Source of the DNA: Malacoraja senta
Taxonomy: Eukaryota
Assembly: GCA_038087875.1 (NCBI GenBank)
Contig: CM075988.1
Coordinates: 26,848,001-26,912,000, forward strand
DNA length: 64,000 bases
Direction: 5' to 3'
Numbering within the stretch: the first letter of the stretch is position 1; every line of letters starts with the position of its first letter. The position numbers and the translations under genes were made by a program. Below the pieces are notes generated by a model. The model had not been told where the DNA came from, did not search any database, and worked only from the letters and a program-made list of their open reading frames with translations. Positions 47,501-63,353 of the stretch are shown piece after piece.

Positions 47501-47703
47501 ATGGCAGGTGAACCAAAGGGGTTTCTCCGTCAGCAGTCAGCCATCACCCCAGGTGTGTTTACCGAGGCTGACTTTGTGTCTTTCAACAAGATCGCTTCAG
47601 GAAAGTTTGCAAATGTCTTCAAAATAAAACACAAAGTGTGGAGGGTGAACTTGGCCCTAAAGTGCTGCCATTTGTTACGTGAAGAATCCTCATCATTTGA
47701 AAG
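47501..47703 (+). CDS. ANKK1: ANKK1 exon 1 (MAGEPKG...IASGKFANVFKIKHKVWRVNLALKCC...)
   Basis: gccATGG Kozak context; G-loop and ALK (VAIK-equivalent) lysine; AAG|GTGGGT donor. Confidence 0.92.
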
Positions 47704-50700
47704 GTGGGTGTTAGACATTATAGTTACAGTTAGAGATGCATTCACTTTTAAACTAAATACAAATTGATAATTAAAACTGCAGTAAGCAATTTATATAGGA
47801 ACTAAACGTGGATGATATTATTTATATCCAGCAGTCAATTACTGTGTGATGGAAATTGCTGCAGGCTAGCTTTTGCTTTTTCCTATAATTAGCAAGATTT
47901 ATCATTTGGATGGCACTCCAAACTAAACTAAATGTTATTTTAAATTTAGTGTCCTCATCAATAGATGAAAGGATGTGGGTGAAGTGGGTGCATCCGCACT
48001 GAGGATTGTAGCTGTGCCCATCTGAACCATTTAGGCTTGTCACGAATCATGAATTTATAGGCCAGTGGCATCTCCCTGTATGAGACTGTAGATGTTGGAG
48101 TCATAGTCTCAGGATAAGGGGCGGGTATTTTAGACGGGAGCAAGGGGAATTTTCTGCAATTAGAGGGCTGTGAATCTTTGGAATTCTCTACTCTGTTAGG
48201 CTGTGGATGCTCATATACTGTGTACAATTATATCTGGGCAATAGATTCTTGGGTGCAAGAACCACAAAGTGATATCGGGCAAAGTAGTAAAAATGGAAGT
48301 GACATCAATGTTCAGCTGATCTTATTGAAAAGTGGGAAAGAATGGGAATTAAAAGGATCGGTGATATGTATGAAATGGGAAATCTATTATCATTCCAACA
48401 ATTATAATTAAAATTTAAACTGAAAAATAACCAATATTTTAAATATCTTCAGATTTGTGATTTCATGAAGAAATACATACAAGGATATCAAAAAATAACT
48501 TTTGATTTACTGGAAGAAACAATGAATATTAAGGCTGACTCACAGAAATTAATATCATATTTATATAATAGTATTTTAAATGTAGACCTACCATCGACAG
48601 AGGCACTTAGAGAAGAGTGGGAATGGGAATTAATGATAAAAATTACAACGGTTACATGGGAAAAGTATTTGATATATATACACAAATGTTCGATTAATGC
48701 AAGACATAATTTAATTCAATTTAAAATTTTACATAGATTATATTATTCAAAAACTAGATTGAATAAATTTTACCCAAATACTTCCCCCATTTGTGATAAA
48801 TGTCTATCCCAAAACGCAACCATAACACACTCTTTCGTTTCCTGCATAAAACTTTATAAATTTTGGAGTGATATTTTTGAAATATTTACAAAATTATTCA
48901 AGATAAGAATGGAACCTAATACTGAAATGATTATATTTGGAGTAATGGAAGATGGGAATAAATTGAACTCATCTCAAAATTTATTTTTTAATTATGGTTT
49001 AATAATAGCAAAAAAACTAATACTTAAATTCTGGAAAAATACACCAATACCAACGCTTAAAATGTGATTTCAAGCAGGTTGGACACTGCACATCTTGAGG
49101 AAATGCTAATAGATAAATCAGACCAATTCTTAACGAGTTGGTCTCCATTTGTCGTCTTTTTGGAATCATATGGTGCAACACAATTGTAGAAGCTAACTGT
49201 TCCAGGACTGGGTGAGGGATGGTCAAGATTATAAATAATGAGCTCCTTACTTTTATTTTTTTATTTTCAACTCTCTTTTTTCTATTTTCTTTTCTTCAAT
49301 TTTCTTCTTTCACTCTTTTTTTCCTTTTTCACACACTATATATTTCACGTTTTTCTATCTTTTATTAAAATAAAAAATAAAAAAATAACAAAAATAAACA
49401 AATAAATAAAATAATAATGAAAAGTGGAGAATATAAGGTGTCAGAGTTTACTCCTGAGTCTATTTCTTATGTTCTTAAGTATATATATATATATAGTGGC
49501 TTGCAAACGTTTTCATACCCCTTGAACTTTTCCACATTTTGTCACGTTACAACCACAAACGTAAATGTATTTTATTGGGATTTTATGTGATAGACCAACA
49601 CAAAGTGGTGCATAATTGTGAAGTGGAAGGAAAATGATACATGGTTTTCAAATTTTGTTACAAATAAAAAACTGAAAAGTGTGGTGTGCAAAAGTATTCA
49701 GCCCCCCTGAGTCAATACTTTGTAGAACCACCTTTCGCTGCAATTACAGCTGCAAGTCTTTTGGGGGTATGTCTCTACCAGCTTTGCACATCTAGAGACT
49801 GAAATTTTTGCCCATTCTTCTTTGCAAAATAACTCAAGCTCAGTCAGATTGGATGGAGAGCATCTGTGAACAGCAATTTTCAAGTCTTGCCAGAGTTTCT
49901 CAATTGGATTTAGGTCTAGATTCACGCCATTCTGACACATGAATATGCTTTGATCTAAACCATTCCATTGTAGCTCTGGCTGTATGTTTAGGGTCGTTGT
50001 CCTGCTGGAAGGTGAACCTCCGCCCCAGTCTCAAGTCTTTTGCAGACTCCAAGATTGCCCTGTATTTGGCTCCATCCATCTTCCCATCAACTCTGACCAG
50101 CTTCCCTGTCCCTGCTGAAGAAAAGCATCCCCATAGCATGATGCTGCCACCACCATGTTTCACAGTGGGGATGGTGTGTTCAGGGTGATGTGCAGTGTTA
50201 GGTTTCCGCCACACATAGCGTTTTGCATTTAGGCCAAAAACTTCAATTTTGGTCTCATCTGACCAGAGCACCTTCCTCCACATGTTTGCTGTGTCCCCCA
50301 CATGGCTTGTGGCAAACTGCAAACGGGACTTCTTATGGCTTTTTTTCAACAATGGCTTTCTTCTTGCCACTCTTCCATAAAGGCCCGATTTGTGGAGTGC
50401 ACGACTAATAGTTGTCCTGTGGACAGATTCTCCCACCTGTGCTGTGGATCTCTGCAGCTCCTCCAGAGTTACCATGGGCCACTTGGCTGCTTCTCTGATC
50501 AATGCTCTCCTTGCCCGGCCTGTCAGTTTAGGTGGACGGCCATGTCTTGGTAGGTTTGCAGTTGTGCCATACTCTTTCCATTTTCGGATGATGGATTGAA
50601 CAGTGCTCCGTGAGATGTTCAAAGCTTGGGATATTTGTTTATAACCTAACCCTGCTTTAAACTTCTCCACAACTTTATCCCTGACCTGTCTGGTGTGTTC

Positions 50701-51088
50701 CTTGGGCTTCATGATGCTGTTTGTTCACTAATGTTCTCTAACAAACCTCTGAGGCCTTCACAGAACAGCTGTATTTATACTGAGATTAGATTACACACAA
50801 GTGGACTCTATTTACTAATTAGGTGACTTCTGAAGGCAATTGGTTGCACTGGATTTTATTTAGGGGTATCAGAGTAAAGGGGGCTGAATACTTTTGCACG
50901 CGACAATTTTCAGTTTTTTATTTGTAAAAAAATGTGAAAACCATGTATCATTTTCCTTCCACTTCACAATTATGCGCCACTTTGTGTTGGTCTATCACAT
51001 AAAATCCCAATAAAATACATTTACGTTTGTGGTTGTAACGTGACAAAATGTGGAAAAGTTCAAGGGGTATGAATACTTTTGCAAGCCA

Positions 51089-51146
<58 letters not shown>

Positions 51147-54100
51147 AATGTAATATATCTATACATATATATCTGTAGAGAATGTGCAGATAAAAATTGT
51201 GTAAGTACTGTAAAAAGATAGATAAGTCTAAGGATAGTAGGAGATAAAAACTAAAACTGCAAAAAAATGGTAGAGGGCGGTAGTTTGGGACATTACTTTT
51301 CTTCTTTAACATTACAGGGACATGAAATATCTGATGGAGGTGGCAGGGAAGACGCTGAGAGTAAAGTTCAAGCACATTTTGCCAATATATGGGATTTGTA
51401 CGCGGCCGGCGGGAATTGTAATGGAATACTTGGAAAACGGATCTCTGGATAAATTGCTCCTCAAAGATACATTACCTTGGCCAATGAAATTCCAGATTAT
51501 TCATGAGACGTCTTTGGGAATGAACTTCTTACACAGTATGAAGCCACCACTACTTCACTTGGAGTTGAAAGCTAGAAACATACTCCTGGATGAAAACCTC
51601 CACGTCAAGGTTGCTGTGTTGATTGTCTGACCGGAACTCTCATACCTGACAGGTTTAAGGCAGCTAGTGTGAGATCAATTAGGTTCCAGCCTTGGTTCAG
51701 TGATAGCTCTCATCTCTGCATAGGCTATTTGCGGTTTCAACTTTCATTTCAACGTACAATGCAGTCTGACACCCCAGTGAAGTGTTGAGGGAGTGCACCA
51801 TCATCAAGATTTTAAAACTAAATCCCATTTTCCTTTGCTAATGTCCAAAAGATAGATTGCATTACAGATTAAACCAGTATAATTATATTAATTCAATTTA
51901 TCATAAGAGATAAGCTACAGAATATCAATGCAGCATTATGCTAAATCAATCAGTTAACAGCACAATCTTGGGCAAGTGGTGTGAGTTCATTAGTTGTCCC
52001 AGCTGGTGAACCTGTTCATTGTCACTCTGGTGGGGGTTCATTCGTTGTCACATGACTTCTCTATCCCACTCCACAGCAGGTCAGGCTACATCTGTGGAAA
52101 GAGAAATAGAGTGCAAGTTTCATGTCACTGGCTCTTCATTTGAGCGGACAAAGAGAGAGTATATGCAGTCAAATGCAGAGGACATAGGGGGAGGATTATT
52201 GGGAAGGACCAAGACCGAGTGCAAGGTAGTTGAGATAAATTGAGCAAAATGGTGATAATGTGAGGTGAAAGTGTGTGACAGTCAAACAAGTAGATATGGT
52301 TGGGAAGATGTACAAATGAGATTAGACACGATCATTAGCCCAAACTTTTGAAGTTTGGTGCAATGTGCCCAGTAAAAAGACGAGAAGATAGATTTCTATT
52401 GTGTAGTACTTTTCAAAGCAGAAGATTGATTGAAAAGTATTTGGTGAAAATAAGGCAGATGCTGTGAAATTCATTGTGTGGTGTGCTATGGAGGCCATTT
52501 AGTGTGTGATGTGCCATGAAGGCCATTTTGCAACAGTTATCACACGTATGCATCAAAGTGAAGTGGAAAAAAACAAGTCTCAGCAGGAAGGAGTCTTGTC
52601 CAAAGTAAGTTAGAGAGTAATTCCTCGTGGCACCATGATCACAGTGTCTGCTGCTGTAGGCAGCTGAGGAATCTCCTGCAACCTTGAGTCTCCAACACTG
52701 CAGGTTAGACAGGCAATCGGTGAGTTGTCTGTGCGGTGTTGGGCACCATTCCAGTGTTTGTCCTCCACATTGACCTCCAGCACAATGTCAAAGATGTGGG
52801 AGCCCACTCCTGCTTCCTGCCTGCCAATGCCACAGAAGGCAAGGCTGGCATTTGGCCATATGACTTGAGACAGTGCCATCTGCTGAGGATTGCTAGCATT
52901 ACTCAATAAGGTGCAAGGGCACTCTTGCTACTTCACCTTCCTGCATATAATTTGAAATGCCACGCAGTTACCATGTGTAAATGTATTGAAGGTCTGAGAA
53001 TGCCACAGCTTATGTACACAATGTTTTGTGTGTCAGGCATGTCTCTCTGCCTCTGCCCTGGAATAAACTTACCATGTCCATTATATGTTCCCATTTCTAA
53101 GGTCCAGGTGGTGGCCTTTAACGACTTGCATTGAACGTCATTGGACCATTACTGGAGTCTGACAACCAAATGGGGTGGGATAGAGAAGTAATGTGGCAGA
53201 ATCTCTCTCTAAATGGCATTCAGCAAAATCGTTTGCCCAGTGGAGTGTGGACCGGCACTTCTGCCTTTGTGCTGCCCTTAATTGTTAAACCAATACAGGC
53301 ACATAACACCATAATGATTTTATTCATCAAAGGGACACTTGCTTGAAAGAAAATGTTTGTGGTCACTAACAAGCATATTTGTATTTTATATAGATAGCAG
53401 ATTTCGGATTATCAAAATGGGAAGATAGCATGAGTAATATGGAACAAATTGAAAGGTCTGCTATGAGAGGAACCATCATCTATATGCCACCAGAATTGTC
53501 AAATAAACCTTCTGGAGTCAAGCATGATGTTTACAGGTCAGATTTCATTGAGTTACAGGATCTGGTTAAGTCTTCAAGTTTAATTTTTAGTAGCAGTCTT
53601 ACCGGTATTATTGGAATTCAGCATAGTCAGAATTGTTGCGATTAGGTGTGAAGTTAAAGGAGCCTCTTTGTTAAAGGTTGCTGCATTCATTACTTGCTAT
53701 GATTTATACATAACAATGATAACTGAATTCAAAAGAGCCTCATTGACTATAAATTGCTTCTGTAAACACTGGGATGGCAAGAGGTGCCACATGGATGCTC
53801 TGACGAAACATCAACAACCTGAACTGTTGCCTAGTTTCCCGTTCATGCTGGGTGGTGCCTGTCCTGAGAGGTTCCACATTTTGTTTTTGTTTCAGATTTC
53901 CAGCATTCACATTCATTTTGTAATTCTCCTTTACTGTATGGGTGTGCAATGTTTGCCTTTGTTCTTTCCATTTTCTTCCAAATGTGCAGTTTGTGGCTGT
54001 TTGCTTTATGCTGCTTCATTGGGCCCTTGCTCTTTGTTTGATCACCCCTCCATGAACACAGCACTGTCTCTGAATAGAAACCTAATCTTAGGAAATCATC

Positions 54101-57100
54101 AGCATGCTGCTATGCTGAAAGTTACGTTCTCATGCACTACCTTCTCTGAGATCTGTCAACAGCTTGTAGCTGATGTGATGAGGTGAATGCCAAATGGTCC
54201 CTAAGTTCTGAAAACAAAGTTACTTCCTGAAGCAATAGTTTTTCACATCACACTAAAATAAACTGCTGGTAGAACTCAGTAGGCCAGGCAGCATCTGCTG
54301 AGGGAAATGATAGCTTAAGACAATTTGGGACCTGGGCCTTCTTCAGAAGAAGGGTCGCAACCCAATACTGTCTCCAAAGATGCTGCCTGGCCTACTGAGT
54401 TCTTGCAACAGTTTGTTTTTTGCTCTAGATTCCAGCATCTGCAGTACCACATGTCTCTAGTTATACCTCTTGGATTGTTTACTGAATCAAGCCATGTCTT
54501 TGAGATGTTTTATATTGCTTTATATCTAAATGTTATTATTACATTGAAAATGATTTGTGCTGGAGATGATTGAAGCATTTGACCTCATTGATTACATTTG
54601 AATGAAAGTAGATAATAGGAAATCTGCAATGTTCTCAGCATTTTGACTAGTAACACCTTTACCATTAGTAACTGCGGGACAGATTTCATATTCAATCTTG
54701 AATAAATTGTTTATTTCATTTTATAACAACCCTTAAACCTTCTATATAGTTCCTGAACTGCATTCCACTTACTTATCCACCAAGAGGAAAGAAATATAGT
54801 TATTCCAACATCTGTGACGTTTTGATGTGACAGAACATTTCTGGGACTAAAGTGATGTGACATAAATTCAATGGAAATTCATATATTTTTTTATTACTCT
54901 ATTCCACAAGGATAACAAAATCTATAGCTCCCATATGTCAAGGTGTCTCAATGTACCTTTCACTGAAGTACCACCTTTGAGGCACAGCCATGTAGGTATT
55001 GTGTCAGACACTTTGTAGCCATGAAGATCAAACAAACAGCCATATGATCAACCATTTAAGTTTTGGTTGTGTTAATTGAATGTTAAATGCTGACTAGGAC
55101 ATAAGGAGGGATTCCTCTACTCTGTAGGTTAATCTTTGAGAAGATTCAATGAAAGGGAACTGCAGATGCTGGTTTATACCAAAGATAGACAAAAAGTGCT
55201 GGATTACCTCAGCAGGTCAGGCAGCATCTTTGGAGAAAATGGATAGGTGACGTTGCGGGTCGGGGCCTTTCAGACTGAAGAAAGGTCCCGACCTGAAACT
55301 TCACTGATCCATTTTCTCCAGAGATGCTGCCTGATCCGCTGAGTTAATCCAGCACTCTGGAAGAAGGCACCTTCAACGTTGCAGAATCCCTAAAATACTG
55401 CAGTGGAGTTCCTGGCCGTTTATACACAAGCCTATGGATTTCCCTGTCTTCCAACTCAGGGTCGAGAGAGCTCCTCACTAACCACAGAGAATATACCAAG
55501 GAGTACCTGAATAAATCAGCACCTGAGGGAAGGAAGCATATGAAGGAGAAAGGAAAAAAAGAAAAGATTAATAAAGTTGGATGAAATCAGATTGGGCAAT
55601 TGGAAACACCCAACCTCATGCTGAAGGACAGAGCTAGTGGGAATAAATACCAATCTTCTCGTGATTCTTTGCTACACGTTCCATGTTTGTTAAACTCCAT
55701 GCTGGGAGCAATAACACTGCCACTACACTCATTTACATAACATTATTATTTGGGTGAAACAAATCTTAAAAACCTACAAGCAAACGGATTTTGTCACTAA
55801 TATTCATAGAAGCTATTCATATTTCAGTGAATTAGAGCAGCTGTATCATTTACCAGTCAGAATTTATGCACTTATTATGCAAATTAATATTAAAGCTTTC
55901 AGTGCCCTCTAACCATTCAACGTGACACAAAGATATGGAACTTGCATCAATACTTGTTTACCCAACATCTCTCTGCTCAGCCACCTTCATTACCCACTAG
56001 TCTGACAACAGTTTTATTTTAAAATCTTAAATCTTTTATACAATTTTTTTTTCCAAAATGGTTCTTCCACAGTCCCACTCTTCCCTACATCTGTAATCTT
56101 TAGCCGCTGAGATCATTGCTTCTCTCCCGTTCCGTTGTGAATCGATTCATCATTGGTTGTTATTCCTTCAGCCCCCATAGGTATAAAGGTTTAGAATTCC
56201 CTTCTTGCACTGCATACTCCACCCTCTCTCCTACTCAATATTCCCCACAAAGCCTACTGTACTTCTAAGATATGATAGTGACATTTGAGAGACTTTTGGA
56301 TAGGCAAATGGAAATGCAGGAATGGAGGGATATGGATTATGTACAGGCAGGTAAGATAAGGTCTTAGCATCATGTTCGGCACAGACTTTGTGGTCTGATG
56401 GGCCTGCTCTAGTGTACTATGTTCTATAACCAAGATTTTGAATCTCTTTTAAGATCTCATGTGGTTCAATGTGAACTTTTGTTTCAGAATACTCTTGTAA
56501 AGTATACTGGGAGATTTCCGTATAATACAATTAACAGTTGATGCTTTCGTTGAATTGTACTAGTGTCATTTCTTTGTCCGGTTAAAGGAGACTAGCATTT
56601 GATTTGCGCTGGACATGAAGAAACTTACAGTGAATGTTTTTTCCAGCTTCTCCATTGTGACGTGGGAGGTCATGACTCAGCAGAAGCCCTATGCTGGTAA
56701 GACCATCACTAGCTCTCCCTGCAAGAACATCCCTACAGTCATCATGGCAACAGCTAATCCCTGTATCAATGGGATTTATGATTTACTTTAAGAAGGATCA
56801 TTTACATTAAGAAGGATGCATTATTATTATTACAACATTTAATTATGAGCACTAACATTAATTTTGTTTGAGTTTTGTGGTCGATGTAGATAAATGTGTT
56901 GAATACAATTAAGTTATCTGCTTGATTTTCAACTTCATTACAGAGGTACTTGGTGATCCCTGTAGAAATCATAGTGTTGCTCCTCAGAAAATAATTCAGT
57001 TGTTTACCTGATTCATCATGGCATTAAATCATTTTACTTCCTCTGAGACTGCACTGGTGAACATGTTTATTTGATCTGTTTAGGAAAAGTAGTTTAGCAG

Positions 57101-60100
57101 CTGCATCTTATATTAATGCAAAAGAAACATTGACACAAATTATACCTGAGCAGTGAAAGCTATTTCATGTTAAATGAAACGCAAGCATACACTTCTGAAT
57201 GCATTCTAAATGATTCTGGCGAACACGTCAACTGTTTATTCCTTCTTATTTTTCTCAAATTACTGGGAGGTAATGTATTTATAATTAATTCTGCCTTTGT
57301 TTATGAAGAGCAGATTTGATATGTGATTGAAGTCATGTTGTGCTTTGGCAGGTTAAAGAGAGTGAAGCAGTTCCCATTAGATATGATTCAGGGACCAAGA
57401 GATGGTGGTGATGATCTAGACTGTCTCTAGGGATAGTTTAGTTCAGTTTAGTTTAGTTTAGAGATACAGCGTTGAAACAGGTCTTTCGTCCCACCGAGTC
57501 CGCGCCGACCTGCGATCCTCGCAGACTAACACTATCCTACACACGCTAGGGACAATTTACAATTTTACCAAGCCAATTAGCCTACCATCTTTGGAGTTTG
57601 GGAGGAAACCGGAACTCCCAGAGAAAACCCACGCAAGTCACGGGGAGGTTGTACAAACTCCGTACAGACAGCACCCGTAGTCAGGATCGATCCTGGGTCT
57701 CTGGCGCTGTCAGGCAGCAACTCTACCGCTGAGCGGGTAGTGGAAACAAGGAGTGCTTGAGCTTCCAAAAGGGGAATGGATGGGTCGAAGAGAAATAATG
57801 TGCAAGGCTGTGGAGAAAGACGAGGGAATGGAACTAAATAGATTGCTCTACAGTGAGCAGGCATGGACTCGGTGAGATGAACACTTTCCTTCTCTTCTGT
57901 AACAGCTCTATGATTCTCATTTAACAACACAGGTTGTGTGTGTGTGTGTACATTTGCATAATATCTGCTCTTGGGAATGTTATATTTGTATACTTAAGCA
58001 ACAGGACTCCATCTTGGGTCCGTACACAGTTTTTTATTAAGACAAGAGCTGGTGTATTTCAGTATCCATTTGCCGTTCTACATTTCAGGAACTGACGTAC
58101 TGGCTGTATTTGTGAAAGTCGTGGCAGGAGAGAGACCGTGCCTGAAAATAATTCCAGAAGACGCCCCTCCAGGATGCGCACAGGTGGTTGAACTGATGCA
58201 AAGATGTTGGAATCAGGAACCAAAGAGAAGACCTGCGTTCTCCGGCAAGCTGTTTATTGATGATGGGGCCAACTCTTTACAGGGAACTGCAGCATTTGTT
58301 TACAAATCGTTCTAAACTAGGTGTTGGCAAAAAGTCTGAAGAAGGGTCCTGACCTGAAGCAACACCTTGGTTGGAGAGAGTTAATGTTTCGGTTTATGGT
58401 CTTTCATCAGAGCACCTTAATGAAAGATCACCAACCTAAAATATTAGAGAGCAGAAACAAGGAACTGCAGATGCTGGTTTACAAAAAAAGACTAAAAGTG
58501 GTGGACTAACTCAGTGGTTCAGGCAGCATCTCTGGAGAACATGAATAGGTGACGTTTAGGATCGGGACCCTTCTTTAGACTGATCAGTCTGAGTTACTCC
58601 AGAACGTATTAACTGTGTACCTCCATCCAATGCTGCCTGGCCTGCTGAGTATTTACAGTATTCTCTGCTTTAATTAAAACCAGTAAATCAATCATAATTT
58701 TTATCATTTTCTTTTCTAGAAATCGTTGTGGAAACTGAAATGCTGTGCAGCCTTTTACAATTCCCAGATATTGACGGCAGGAAGACAACTGAGAAAGCAC
58801 GGATGTGTCTGCGTTCACCACACAGTAGCCTTCACGTACGCCGATCTCCTGTGGGAGCCTTTATCTTTGCAAAATAACTGTGTTCAATAGAAAAAGAAGT
58901 AAAATAACAAAGTGATGAATCTAGAGAAGCTGCAGAACAAGGATGGATAGAGTAGAGAATTGCAGCCTGCTTCCAAGGCTACAAGGGTCAGCCACTAGAG
59001 GGCATAGGTTTAAGGGAAGAGGGAAAAGATTTAAATGGGATCTGAGGGTCAAGTTCTTTCACACGGAGGTAAAGAACTGCAGGAGGAAGTGGTCGAGGTG
59101 GGTACGACCGAAGGGTCTGTTTCCATGCTGTGTCACTCTATGAATCTAACAGTAGTTTCGCAACTCAGATTAAGCCATAGTAATTTATAGTAAATTAAAT
59201 AATTTTAAACAGCAGTTTCTCTTTTAATAGATGAAAATGGGCAGTTAATTTGTATACAATATGACCCCCAAAACATAAGAGGGCAGTCATTTTTTTGATA
59301 TGTTGAATTTGGATAAATGTAGGCCCAGTAATGACAAGATGAACCTCAAAATAGTGCAGTAGTAATTTCCATATGTGCCTGAGGGAGTATTAAAGAAGTT
59401 TTGAAAAACCTCTTGTGAATGGTGGCATCTTTAACATTGCAGTGCTCCTTATTACTACAATGAAGTATTCATCAATATGTTTGCGCTCAATTATTCACAA
59501 TGATGTGATTTAGAATCTCGAGTGCCAGCCACAATAATGCAGCTGAGGCATGGATAGGTTGTTTTTACATCTGCAGGTAGGAAGTGCTGACAGTCAGATG
59601 AAATAAAGTAAGAAATTCATGGCTAATTCACTCATGAATGTTCAAAACATGCGTGTTCCTGGCAAGGCAAGAACTTGTTGACCATCTTTAACAGCCCTTG
59701 AGGAGGTGGTTTTATCTTGCACTAAATGTTATTCCCTTATCATGTATCTGCACTGTAAATGACTCGATTGTAATCATGTATCATCTTTCCGCTGACTGGA
59801 TAGTCACAACAAAAGCTATTCACTGTACCTTGGTACACGTGTCAACAAACTAAACTGGACACGAGCTCTTCTGGCGGACATATTCTGAGTCCTACTTTTG
59901 TAGGGAGTTTCAGGATTTACGCTAGCTAAATACTCACAGTACTAATGTGCTGCAAAACCTGTTTGTGCTGTAAATTCTGTCCAAATCTGTGCCATTGTTT
60001 TTACCTAAATGAACTTCAGGAATTTAAAAGAGACATTGTTTCTCCTGGTTTATTTTGTGCTGTGTTATGCCATTGCAGCATCTCAAGGGAGAAACAATTA

Positions 60101-63100
60101 AAGTTCCCAGCCACTAAAATTAAAAACATAAAAGTTAAATAAATAACTATAAGTTTTATTGACACCAGTGCAATGATGCTGTATTAAACAGTATATTTAC
60201 TGCCTTCAGTGTTTTTAGCATGCAGTAACAAAAATAAACTTATGGCCATTAAATGTTATTAAAGAGATCTTTAATTCTGTTCTACTTATGGGAAATTGAC
60301 CAGGTACAGATTGCAGATAGTGGACAGTGTGAATTAGATGATTGCACACATCAACATTGACGTGTAACTGATGTGCAACTTAGACAGCAAACATTCATCA
60401 CTTACAAAATGACACTGACTTACTAAGTTGCCACAGAAGGCTGTGGAGGCCAAGTCAACAGATATATTTAAGGCAGAGATAGATAGATTCTTAATTAGTA
60501 TGGGTGTCAGAGGTTATGGGGAGAAGGCAAGAGAATGGGGTTGGAGGGAGAGATAGATCAGCCATGATTGAATGGCGGAGTAGTTTTGATGGGCCGAATG
60601 GGCTAATTCTGCTCCTATCACTTATGACCTTATGACTAAGTAGTTTCTGAGAAAATCAAATGAACAAAGATTTAGAATTTCCTGACAACAATCAGCATTC
60701 TTATTTTTTCCTTTCCGCTAGAATGGAACAATAATTTCAGAGATTGCAAGTTATGAATTGCAGACGTTGAGTCTGTTGCCGGGGACTGAAACCGATGGTG
60801 AGTATGTACGTGTTCCCCAGAGTAAGACTGGACCATATTCAGTGGTGTTTTGAAGCATTAGAGATACAGGTCCGCCCTGGGTTTCAAACACCTGATTTGT
60901 TTTTTATCTCCAGGGGCTGTGCATGCCGAGTTGTTCAATCATTTAAGGCTGAGGTTAATGTATTTTAAGGTGCTAACAAAGTTATTGAGATCAGATTGGA
61001 AAGTGGATGAGATAGTAATTAGTTATGATATTACTGAGTGGTGGAGCCTGCAGCAGACGTTCATGGTCAACTCCTCCGTCAGGCACTCTCACTCCATTCA
61101 TTTCTTCTCTGTATTATAAATCATTGTGGGCCAATCCACTCTGCAATAGCTGCAATAATAATTGGAATCATATCTTCATGAACCTATCAAAAAGCAAAAG
61201 GATTCTGCAGATTCTGGAAATCTGAGAAAAAAAACAGAAATGGTTCAGCAGGTCAGGCAGCATCTGGAGAGAGAAGCAGAGATAAATGTTGCAACTAATC
61301 CCTGCAACTAATTACCACTGTGTATTTCATGGGTTTATCATTGGTTACAGTAAAGCTGAGTTGAGTTCTGCTTGACAGATTATCACAAGAACCTGTGTGC
61401 TGGAACCTTCAGCAAAACACAAACTGTTGGAGGAACTCAGTGGGTCTGGGGAAGAAATGGACATTTTGGGTCGGGAACCTTCTCAAGCGGGTCCCAACCC
61501 AAAACATTGCCTGCCCATATTCTACATCGATGTTGCCTCACCTGAGTTCCTCCAACACTCCTTCTGATTTAAAATATCGAGTTTTAGTTTCTTATTCACA
61601 ATCTTGTTAACAGCAAGAACTGTGGGAAATGATGGAAAATGAAATAAAAATACAAAATGCTGTAAATACTCAGCCAGCCAAGCTGCTTCTCTAAAGGGAC
61701 CTACGCATGTTCTCCAGAGATGCTGCCTGACCTACTGAGTTACTCTGCACTTTGTGTCATGCCTTGCCAGTAAGACTTGGTCTTGGTTTTCTGTGTTTTG
61801 CTTGTCATCTCTGATACTCTGGCGAGATTTGATACAAAATGGTTCGTGGATTAATGTTCGAAAAATCAGGTCAGTCACTGTTCTCTCATGAAGGGTCATT
61901 GACCAGAAATGTTGATTCTATTTCCCTCCACAGATGCTGTCTGACCTGCTAACTATCCTCAGCAGTTGACATCTTTGTACAGAATCATATTGAATGACAG
62001 AGTGGTATTGCACCGTCCTATCCCTGTTTCTGCTCATGGCTTTCTCTACTTATTGCAGGTGAAATCTCCATTGATTCTAGAAGGGAACTGTTGCACTCTC
62101 TACTAGAAAGTGACCTCAGTCATTTGAAGAGAATATTCAGAAAAGAGCATGTTGGCTGGAACTTTGTGGAAGACTACACTTTGATGCACTTGTCCGTTCT
62201 GACTGGAGATGTGGAGTTTGTTCAGCTGGTTCTGGAGTCTGGGGGATGTGTAAATGATCAGACATCCCGAGGGGCCACACCTCTGATACTGGCTGTGCAG
62301 TACAGGTTTGTGCAACTGTGTAACTTACTGATCCAAGAGGGAGCCATTGTCAATCTAGTGGATGAAGACAAATGGGCACCTCTGCATTTTGCATCTCAGA
62401 ATGGGGATGACCACATTGCCCGGCTGCTCTTGGACAAGGATGCCCAGGTCAATGTGAAGGAGGCCGATGGATGGACACCACTCCACCTGGCCTCCCAGAA
62501 CAGCCATGAGAACGTGATGCGAGTGCTCTTCACTCGAGGTGCAGACACCAGCTCACTGGACCATGAACATTGCACATGCCTCCACCTTGCTGCATATTAT
62601 GGTTACTACAGCATCACCAAGCTACTGATTGCTCAAGGAGCCAATTTAAATCAAGCACAGAATGGCCTGAAGACACCACTCCATCTAGCAGCTGCAAGGG
62701 GTTTCTTCAGAGTGGCGAGGTTACTGGTGAACAGTGGAGCTGATATCAATAGTCTAGATTACTCTCATTACACCCCTCTGCATTTGGCAGCATTGAATGG
62801 CCACACTGGCATCTGCCGGCATCTCTTGAAGCATGGGGCTGATGTCCAGCAAAAGTCCTTGCAGAATTGGACCCCCTTGCACCTTGCTGCTCTGAAGGGT
62901 TACACATCAACTGTGCATCTTCTGATTGAACATTTTTCTGATCTTAATGTTGGTGGGGACCTTGAATGGACTTCACTGCACCTGGCAACGTGCTACAGCC
63001 AAGAGGATGTTGTCTCCGAGCTCCTTGAGAGAGGTGCCAATCCCAATGCCACTGAAGTTTCAGGATGGACACCGCTGCACCTGGCTGCCCACGGGGGAAG

Positions 63101-63353
63101 ATTCCGCTGCCTTGTCAAACTGCTTGACCACCAAGCCAATGTGAATGCTGTCAGTCACACCGGATGGACATCGCTGCATCTGGCAGCCATGAGTGGGGGT
63201 GTGAACATCGTAAGGATGTTGATCATGCAGGGAGCTGACCTGAAGGCCCGAGACCAGTATTTCAACACTGCCCTGCAGTTGGCTACCAAGCACCGGAACC
63301 ACAACGTGGCCAGCTTACTCTCAGCTGAAGAAACAGCAAAGCATGATTCATGA
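47501..63353 (+). CDS. ANKK1: ANKK1 (ankyrin repeat and kinase domain containing 1; RIPK family), complete 8-exon CDS, 2331 nt / 776 aa
   Basis: RIPK-type kinase exons plus a large terminal ankyrin exon. ANKK1-like motifs DEDKWAPLHFASQNGDD and DFGLSKW. Lies directly downstream of TTC12, as in other vertebrates, and all exon phases are consistent. Confidence 0.93.
48336..49417 (+). mobile_element. L1-clade LINE 3' fragment with 10-bp TSD, inserted in an older CR1 tail
   Basis: ORF 48465..49067 (QFKILHRLYYS..CDKC..THSF..C, ORF2 C-terminal Cys-rich region), T-rich 3'UTR, A-rich tail; TGAAAAGTGG at 48326-48335 and 49418-49427. Confidence 0.88.
49494..51091 (-). mobile_element. Tc1/mariner DNA transposon, Passport-like, full length (about 1.6 kb), disrupted DD34E transposase
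   Basis: About 210-bp IR/DR-type TIRs (CAGTGGCTTGCAAA..; inner repeat GCAAAAGTATTCA); TA flanks. Transposase runs from 50712 to about 49710 with GRPPK, WSDETK, QQDNDPKH and LNPIE; it has frameshifts near 49925 and 49765 and a 5-codon deletion. Confidence 0.95.
51092..51142. repeat. (TA)n microsatellite flanking the Tc1 insertion (also 49480-49493)
   Basis: Direct reading of the sequence. Confidence 0.95.
51318..51609 (+). CDS. ANKK1: ANKK1 exon 2 (DMKYLMEVAGK...[30 protein letters not shown])
   Basis: acag acceptor; kinase subdomains III-VIb; weak donor AAG|GTTGCT at the conserved HVK position. Confidence 0.93.
53394..53536 (+). CDS. ANKK1: ANKK1 exon 3 (IADFGLSKWEDS...RGTIIYMPPELSNKPSGVKHDVY)
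   Basis: ACTAAC branch point, atag/GTCAGA; DFG, PPE and DVYS motifs. Confidence 0.94.
55153..55358. repeat. Fold-back pair of Penelope-like terminal repeats in ANKK1 intron 3
   Basis: Inverted arms around the core CTGAAGAAAGGTCCCGACCTGAAAC at 55275-55299. Confidence 0.8.
56647..56696 (+). CDS. ANKK1: ANKK1 exon 4 (FSIVTWEVMTQQKPYA), 50 nt
   Basis: ccag/GTAAGA; subdomain IX. Confidence 0.94.
57436..57730 (-). mobile_element. V-SINE (HE1-like) copy
   Basis: Same family as 5362-5670, with (AAACT)n tail. Confidence 0.8.
58089..58244 (+). CDS. ANKK1: ANKK1 exon 5 (TDVLAVFVKVVAGERP...LMQRCWNQEPKRRPAFS), 156 nt, GC donor
   Basis: tcag acceptor; subdomains X-XI; the only nearby in-frame donor is CCG|GCAAGC. 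Confidence 0.88.
58720..58835 (+). CDS. ANKK1: ANKK1 exon 6 (IVVETEMLCSLLQFPD...SSLH), 116 nt
   Basis: ctag acceptor; resembles recalled human DITIETDILLSLLQ; donor CAC|GTACGC (3' boundary less certain). Confidence 0.78.
60425..60636 (+). mobile_element. CR1 3' tail fragment
   Basis: ttgccacagaaggctgtggaggcc...cagccatgattgaatggcggag...cttatgaccttatgac. Confidence 0.8.
60722..60797 (+). CDS. ANKK1: ANKK1 exon 7 (NGTIISEIASYELQTLSLLPGTETD), 76-nt linker
   Basis: Strong pyrimidine tract, ctag/GTGAGT; phase 0 to phase 1 as required. Confidence 0.75.
62059..63353 (+). CDS. ANKK1: ANKK1 exon 8, about 12 ankyrin repeats, stop TGA
   Basis: gcag acceptor in frame with ORF 62091..63353; repeated TPLHLA motifs at 33-aa spacing. 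Confidence 0.96.

Follow-up and report, generated by a model that had tools for sequence, protein, structure and literature searches.

The window analysed here, a stretch of 64,000 nucleotides from the skate Malacoraja senta, contains an ANKK1 gene whose eight coding exons span positions 47501–63353 of the forward strand and encode 776 amino acids with zero internal stop codons (Table 1). The exon model is colinear with the Amblyraja radiata RefSeq protein XP_032905360.1, from which it differs at 41 of 776 residues with no gap, and it agrees with the intact, stop-free 776-amino-acid frame described in an earlier note on this DNA. Identity is 94.7% to Amblyraja radiata ANKK1 and 94.3% to that of Leucoraja erinacea. 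All introns are GT–AG except intron 5, which has a GC donor at 58245–58246. The protein consists of an N-terminal RIP-type kinase domain and C-terminal ankyrin repeats, as assigned by Pfam on a 94.7%-identical sequence (P0001) and by the fold match to RIPK4; human ANKK1 (also RIPK5 or SgK288; NP_848605.1) has the same layout and likewise eight coding exons. Annotations already exist for the gene and for the skate proteins. In a quick IQ-TREE search with a RIPK2-like outgroup, the window sequence grouped with ANKK1 (31 rows, SH-aLRT 99), the RIPK4 clade being supported at 100. In a 42-row tree, Amblyraja plus Leucoraja form the sister group of the window sequence, followed outwards by Rhinoraja and then Narcine.

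Upstream on the same strand lies a multi-exon gene that is presumably TTC12; this would fit the known cluster, in which ANKK1 is located between TTC12 and DRD2 and from which DRD2 would fall beyond the window. Reverse-transcriptase frames lie among the exons of the upstream gene, and ANKK1 intron 1 contains a LINE fragment and a Tc1-type element, the latter apparently lying between one TA run near 49480 and another near 51094.

Table 1 Features of the Malacoraja senta window
Feature	Position	Strand	Description
Upstream multi-exon gene, exon candidates	1106–31929	+	Ends near 31.9 kb; one exon scores as ARM repeat
Reverse-transcriptase frame, 384 aa	10683–11837	+	Among exons of upstream gene
Reverse-transcriptase frame, 853 aa	13120–15681	−	Among exons of upstream gene
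ANKK1 exon 1 (coding)	47501–47703	+	Gly-loop IASGKFANV; β3 Lys54 at 47660–47662
LINE 3′ fragment	48408–49067	+	ANKK1 intron 1; weak zf-RVT match, under the Pfam cut-off
Tc1/Sleeping Beauty-type transposase frame, 274 aa	49900–50724	−	ANKK1 intron 1
ANKK1 exon 2	51318–51609	+	αC helix through catalytic loop; 3′ end is a splice joint in relatives' contigs (two runs)
Glu75	51337–51339	+	Remaining Glu; one position N-terminal of the conserved αC Glu column (76)
Val76 (GTG)	51340–51342	+	Replaces αC Glu; common to 7/7 skate rows; motif Y-L-M-E-V-A-G-K
Thr80	51352–51354	+	αC Glu+4; Rajidae only
Glu150 (GAG)	51562–51564	+	Replaces catalytic Asp; motif H-L-E-L-K-A-R-N
Ala153-Arg154-Asn155	51571–51579	+	Pro to Ala in all skates; Gly to Arg in Rajidae; Asn retained
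ANKK1 exon 3	53394–53536	+	DFG 53400, PPE 53487, αF Asp210; loop 3 codons shorter
ANKK1 exon 4	56647–56696	+	Exon model
ANKK1 exon 5	58089–58244	+	Followed by GC donor; colinear with Amblyraja protein
ANKK1 exon 6	58720–58835	+	End of kinase domain, linker
ANKK1 exon 7	60722–60797	+	Linker
ANKK1 exon 8	62059–63353	+	Ankyrin repeat domain; stop codon 63351–63353

Altered and retained residues of the kinase domain

Two residues of the catalytic apparatus are replaced in the window, as the earlier note had proposed. In the catalytic loop, a GAG codon places Glu150 in the column of the catalytic Asp, which aligns with the engineered D143N site of the RIPK4 crystal chain 5WNI (titled RIPK4 D143N in complex with ATP). 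In the αC helix, a GTG codon places Val76 at the invariant Glu, which in protein kinases is known to pair with the β3 Lys (PMC4718504). The second assignment depends on register, and the objection raised alongside the original claim was that the neighbouring Glu75 might itself be the αC Glu. The alignment to 5WNI, in which LMEVAGKT pairs with LLEEAKKM, puts the αC Glu at column 76 instead. This column is Glu in 11 of 11 sharks, in 110 of 110 sarcopterygians (tetrapod rows from the best 120 of 1,459 hits) and in 124 of 124 RIPK4 sequences (the best 120 of 568 hits plus four cluster members). Column 75, by comparison, is variable, with Glu in 107/110 sarcopterygians (tetrapods again from the best 120 of 1,459) and 7/11 sharks. 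In the predicted Amblyraja structure, residues 66–81 form a single helix. Four positions beyond the αC Glu, at what we take to be a regulatory-spine residue, Thr80 occupies a site that is Met in all 124 RIPK4 sequences (best 120 of 568 hits plus four) and mostly Met, Ile or Val in ANKK1.

The rest of the catalytic apparatus is largely in place: Lys54, Lys152, Asn155, Asp168 of the DFG motif, PPE and the fold-holding residues are all retained, in line with the earlier report of a preserved β3 Lys, DFG and PPE. The K-A-R-N segment resembles the AARN loop of tyrosine kinases, a comparison that we dropped because Rhinoraja has KAGN.

A pseudokinase is defined by sequence as lacking at least one of the β3 Lys, catalytic Asp and DFG Asp, and Glu150 places skate ANKK1 within this definition. 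The original designation as a pseudokinase encoded by an intact gene thus holds as a reading of sequence. The combination of catalytic Asp and αC Glu that marks an active RIP kinase is absent, and the residue pattern is of the HER3/JAK JH2 type, with the Lys, Asn and DFG Asp kept and the αC Glu and catalytic Asp gone. By prediction, the kinase fold is preserved: the modelled Amblyraja protein (mean pLDDT 84.4) reaches a TMt of 0.89–0.90 to RIPK4 structures, including 0.89 to ATP-bound RIPK4 D143N.

Exon 3 had also been described as three codons shorter after PPE and counted among the clustered skate changes. The shortening is confirmed relative to bony vertebrates, the loop from PPE to DVYS being 10 residues long in all skate and shark rows, 9 in Narcine and 13 in each of the 26 rows from bony vertebrates in the set of 42. 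It is not a skate lesion, however, because sharks with an intact Asp also have it; we rejected this part of the claim, as the deletion is found in all cartilaginous fish rows and predates the skate kinase changes.

Catalytic residues of ANKK1 and RIPK4 across vertebrates

We tallied 150 ANKK1 rows, comprising the window and 149 of 154 proteins (five fragments, mis-models and unrelated hits were excluded); the tetrapod rows are the best 120 of 1,459 hits ranked by likeness, so that tetrapod losses may be undercounted. At the catalytic Asp site, 7/7 skates have Glu and Narcine has Lys, whereas 10 of 11 sharks have Asp, the exception being Asn in the horn shark Heterodontus. Among ray-finned fishes, reedfish and sturgeons have Asp (3/3), and gar and all 17 teleost rows (two species represented twice) have Asn. 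Sarcopterygians keep the Asp in 108/110 rows (tetrapods from the best 120 of 1,459 hits), with Asn in Lacerta agilis and Elgaria and Asp in Podarcis and Zootoca. Parsimony requires at least five losses of the Asp (batoids, Heterodontus, gar plus teleosts, Lacerta agilis and Elgaria), or six changes counted by residue, although a loss known from one species depends on a single genome and might be an error or a rare allele. On a species tree of 42 rows, six changes fall at the catalytic Asp and none at Lys54, His148, Asn155, Glu199, Asp210 or Arg277. A further route is seen in bamboo sharks, in which three rows (P0010, P0046 and P0047) have NFG for DFG; in Hemiscyllium, the catalytic-loop Lys is lost as well. 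Judged by residues, then, ANKK1 has turned into a putative pseudokinase at least six times, through five losses of the catalytic Asp and one of the DFG Asp.

These comparisons carry out the alignment check suggested in the earlier note, with Glu plus Val in 7/7 skates and the αC Glu in 11/11 sharks, and they refine its description of the loss as lineage-specific. The pairing of Glu150 with Val76 is specific to skates, but loss of the Asp is probably older, dating from the batoid stem, as the Lys of Narcine suggests, and recurs at least five times. By the same sequence-based measure, gar and teleosts form a pseudokinase clade far larger than that of skates. In gar and all teleost rows (for example, P0152, P0037 and P0186), HLN is accompanied by a degraded Gly-loop such as AECRFGQV. 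Among sarcopterygians, the 108/110 Asp count (tetrapods from the best 120 of 1,459 hits) makes the residue, or catalysis, seem important.

Some models are doubtful. The ANKK1-like models of sea turtles (P0213 and P0307–P0311) are short, at 334–545 amino acids, with DFR at the DFG site of P0213, and might represent either disrupted genes or faulty models. Loss of ANKK1 from sawfish, stingrays, mantas, lamniforms, whale shark and chimaera, which gave RIPK4 but no ANKK1 hits, was considered and dropped, since a RefSeq sawfish model exists. This model, XP_051895676.1, is labelled LOW QUALITY PROTEIN (PMC12119088, supplement file 26, row 242), a label that a faulty assembly or a genuine break could explain.

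The paralogue RIPK4 served as a control. HLDLKPAN, the αC Glu and DFG are kept in 124 of 124 RIPK4 sequences, and the β3 Lys in 123 of 124, the one without it being a model with only 84% coverage of the query; these are the best 120 of 568 hits plus four cluster members, with the same likeness-ranking bias as the tetrapod ANKK1 rows. RIPK4 is intact in the very species in which ANKK1 is altered, namely Amblyraja, Leucoraja, Rhinoraja, Narcine, Heterodontus, Hemiscyllium, gar and Elgaria. The kinase domain of ANKK1 diverges 4 to 15 times as much as that of RIPK4 in 6/6 species pairs. This holds even for sharks that keep the Asp and therefore points to scaffold-like constraint across cartilaginous fishes.

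Splicing and constraint in skates

The HLE motif and the αC Val are present in all seven skate rows, three of them from RefSeq genomes, and both residues recur in six independent sequences besides the window (three genera and three contigs). Three skate rows are 726-amino-acid proteins on contigs of 2.3–2.6 kb, and these derive from spliced templates because such contigs are too short for the unspliced 15.9-kb gene. Narcine and four skate genomes have open frames of 776–780 amino acids; in Rhinoraja, DFG is also changed, to DVG. Exons 2 and 3 are joined exactly in relatives' contigs, from two runs belonging to different studies, skipping 1,784 bases with GT..AG ends, whereas a DNA run from another relative reads through the intron; the RNA status of runs X17 and X19 is a guess, and X17 is flagged as probably DNA. 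The spliced X19 contig spans both codons, and no difference is listed at either (6 of the 8 exon-2 differences are listed). Seven of its ten listed exon differences from the window are silent, giving a rough pN/pS of 0.09–0.19 (P = 0.001–0.006 against neutrality) for a sample of 12 differences in two exons of one relative's contig, with 2 unplaced differences tried either way. The corresponding pS of 0.076 is close to the intron divergence of 0.056. ANKK1 is thus a gene that relatives splice and that purifying selection constrains; the broken frame, lack of splicing and neutral evolution of a pseudogene, the alternative named in the earlier note, are not what we find.

The dead kinase domain has not decayed relative to the ankyrin repeats, and its fold is just as well conserved as they are. 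Identity to Amblyraja or Leucoraja is 97% for the window's kinase domain and 93% for its ankyrin domain. On a fixed species tree, the ratio of kinase to ankyrin branch lengths comes to 0.91 for crown skates and 0.67 for Rajidae; sharks give 0.91, mammals 0.65 and teleosts 0.73. The ratio is raised on the batoid stem, at 1.75, but none of these values has an error bar, and individual branches range from 0.5 to 1.8. The proposal that scaffold and ankyrin function is retained is therefore supported at the level of sequence, and needs amending in that the kinase fold is retained too.

A probable pseudokinase scaffold and its alternatives

We consider it likely that skate ANKK1 is a functional pseudokinase scaffold that is dead as an enzyme, folded and probably able to bind ATP. 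Without the Lys–Glu pair and the catalytic Asp, phosphate transfer at a useful rate would be impossible. ATP would probably still be bound, with one Mg, through Lys54, Asn155 and Asp168, in the manner of HER3, which binds ATP with one Mg (PMC4718504). The ankyrin repeats, together with a kinase domain that remains stably folded, would then offer binding surfaces, as proposed for human ANKK1 and RhoGEFs in Wnt/PCP signalling. This history would have begun with Asp to Glu, probably on the batoid stem, continued with Glu to Lys in electric rays, each step at the Asp site being a single base change, and added αC Glu to Val together with Pro153Ala on the skate stem. Catalysis appears dispensable, and the protein not, in several lineages, because the Asp has been lost at least five times independently with the gene kept.

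Work on related proteins is in keeping with a scaffold. Human ANKK1 has been proposed as a Wnt/PCP scaffold for FARP1 and WGEF, and its K51R mutant still promotes migration (PMC11477271); the role that we suggest for the skate protein is transferred from these human cell lines. In mouse RIPK3, D143N abolishes activity and leaves stability and partner binding intact, unlike Lys or DFG mutants (PMC13434183), which fits the Asp being the site most changed in ANKK1 evolution.

The change from Asp to Glu nevertheless preserves a carboxylate, which counts against a fully dead enzyme. Some low, useful activity could have been kept, with Glu150 as a poor base or with Glu75 pairing with Lys54 after a helix shift: the replacement is conservative and present in all skates sampled, Lys54, Lys152, Asn155 and DFG remain, and weak activity is described for HER3 in vitro, despite the same two losses (PMC4718504), and for JAK2 JH2 (PMC9988210). 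We find this improbable. Persistence of the gene does not need an acid at the site, given Lys in Narcine and Asn in five other tips or clades; column 75 varies elsewhere; a one-residue helix shift would place Lys79 at a conserved hydrophobic site; and in Rhinoraja, DFG has become DVG as well. Errors of assembly or sequencing are hardly credible as the source of the two codons. The best run from the window's own organism gave no coverage of exon 2 or 3, but all seven skate sequences carry both changes, six of them independent of the window, and no difference is listed at either codon for the X19 contig; the earlier argument against sequencing error is borne out.

A very unlikely reading is that ANKK1 is decaying under relaxed selection and heading for loss. 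Its kinase domain does evolve many times faster than that of RIPK4, the gene is lost in monotremes and lagomorphs (PMC12119088), and the sawfish model is tagged as low quality; yet skates and Narcine keep full-length frames, pN/pS is far below 1, the kinase domain is better conserved than the ankyrin repeats between skates, and teleosts retain the gene with HLN throughout, its loss in zebrafish giving a phenotype (PMC8861280). Less improbable, though still unlikely, is a role mainly in dimers: using the RIP-kinase dimer face, the dead kinase domain would pair with RIPK4 (or with another copy of itself) and regulate it allosterically or inhibit it, much as HER3 pairs with EGFR. Dimerization is required for RIPK4 activity, according to a review (PMC10492769), and the predicted pair of Amblyraja RIPK4 and ANKK1 kinase domains scored 0.65 against 0.00 for the best of three controls, with runs agreeing on at least 81% of contacts and a partner pLDDT of at least 82. 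The score mark is reached by 51/78 solved and 2/108 mismatched microbial pairs, and by 71/105 solved and 2/126 unrelated eukaryotic pairs. The predicted core contacts Trp47, Arg48, Phe85, Asn137 and Phe138 change 0–3 times on the tree. Against this, RIPK4 and RIPK2 kinase domains are already solved, and the score may reflect structures already familiar to the predictor; nor does it tell which family member binds. As a set, the 21 interface sites show no greater conservation than other positions in the domain (mean 5.4 versus 5.1 changes, P = 0.61), and we do not regard the predicted face as specially conserved.

As a pseudokinase scaffold, skate ANKK1 would resemble several known proteins. HER3 likewise lacks the αC Glu and catalytic Asp and keeps the β3 Lys, catalytic-loop Asn and DFG Asp (PMC4718504), but it belongs among the relatives of receptor tyrosine kinases and has His and Asn where skate ANKK1 has Val and Glu; ATP binding and allosteric action, established for HER3, would be predictions for the skate protein. 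PSKH2 is also a kinase or a pseudokinase depending on lineage, with an intact paralogue alongside; its switch, from HRD to HRN, was a single event in primates, in contrast to at least five in ANKK1, to Glu, Lys or Asn, and both PSKH2 forms are inactive in assays, a caution for ANKK1 revertants (PMC9988210). Feline RIPK3 is a RIP kinase with natural lineage-specific loss of a catalytic residue and a retained non-catalytic function, although in one clade and one paralogue (PMC12119088). Lineage-specific pseudokinases have therefore been described before; the loss of catalytic residues in ANKK1 probably has not. In the open-access literature, we found no report of catalytically dead ANKK1 orthologues in skates or fishes. 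The main text of PMC12119088 treats RIPK5 in terms of gene presence and loss only, and the paper describes it as lacking any known function or interactor. In the zebrafish knockout study, ANKK1 is called a serine/threonine kinase, and the word 'catalytic' does not occur (PMC8861280). A fugu kinome study set aside 15 sequences without the Asp, among which fugu ANKK1 may be included. Human ANKK1 keeps HLDLKPGN and the αC Glu, neither of which is present in skates.

ANKK1 carries the much-studied TaqIA variant, and the human protein is linked to addiction. Repeated loss of the catalytic Asp with the gene kept provides independent evidence for a non-catalytic role and, as read from the sequences, suggests that ANKK1 is often a scaffold rather than an enzyme. 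Whether this extends to a conserved, non-catalytic job across vertebrates, with the human protein serving chiefly as a scaffold or modulating RIPK4 as its dimer partner, is a more doubtful proposition that we offer tentatively. In zebrafish, which is used to model human ANKK1, the protein would be a natural pseudokinase, as bracketed by the common ancestor of gar and teleosts, and fish ANKK1 knockouts may thus report scaffold function only. Skate and shark, gar and reedfish, and Lacerta and Podarcis provide natural pairs of dead and intact orthologues.
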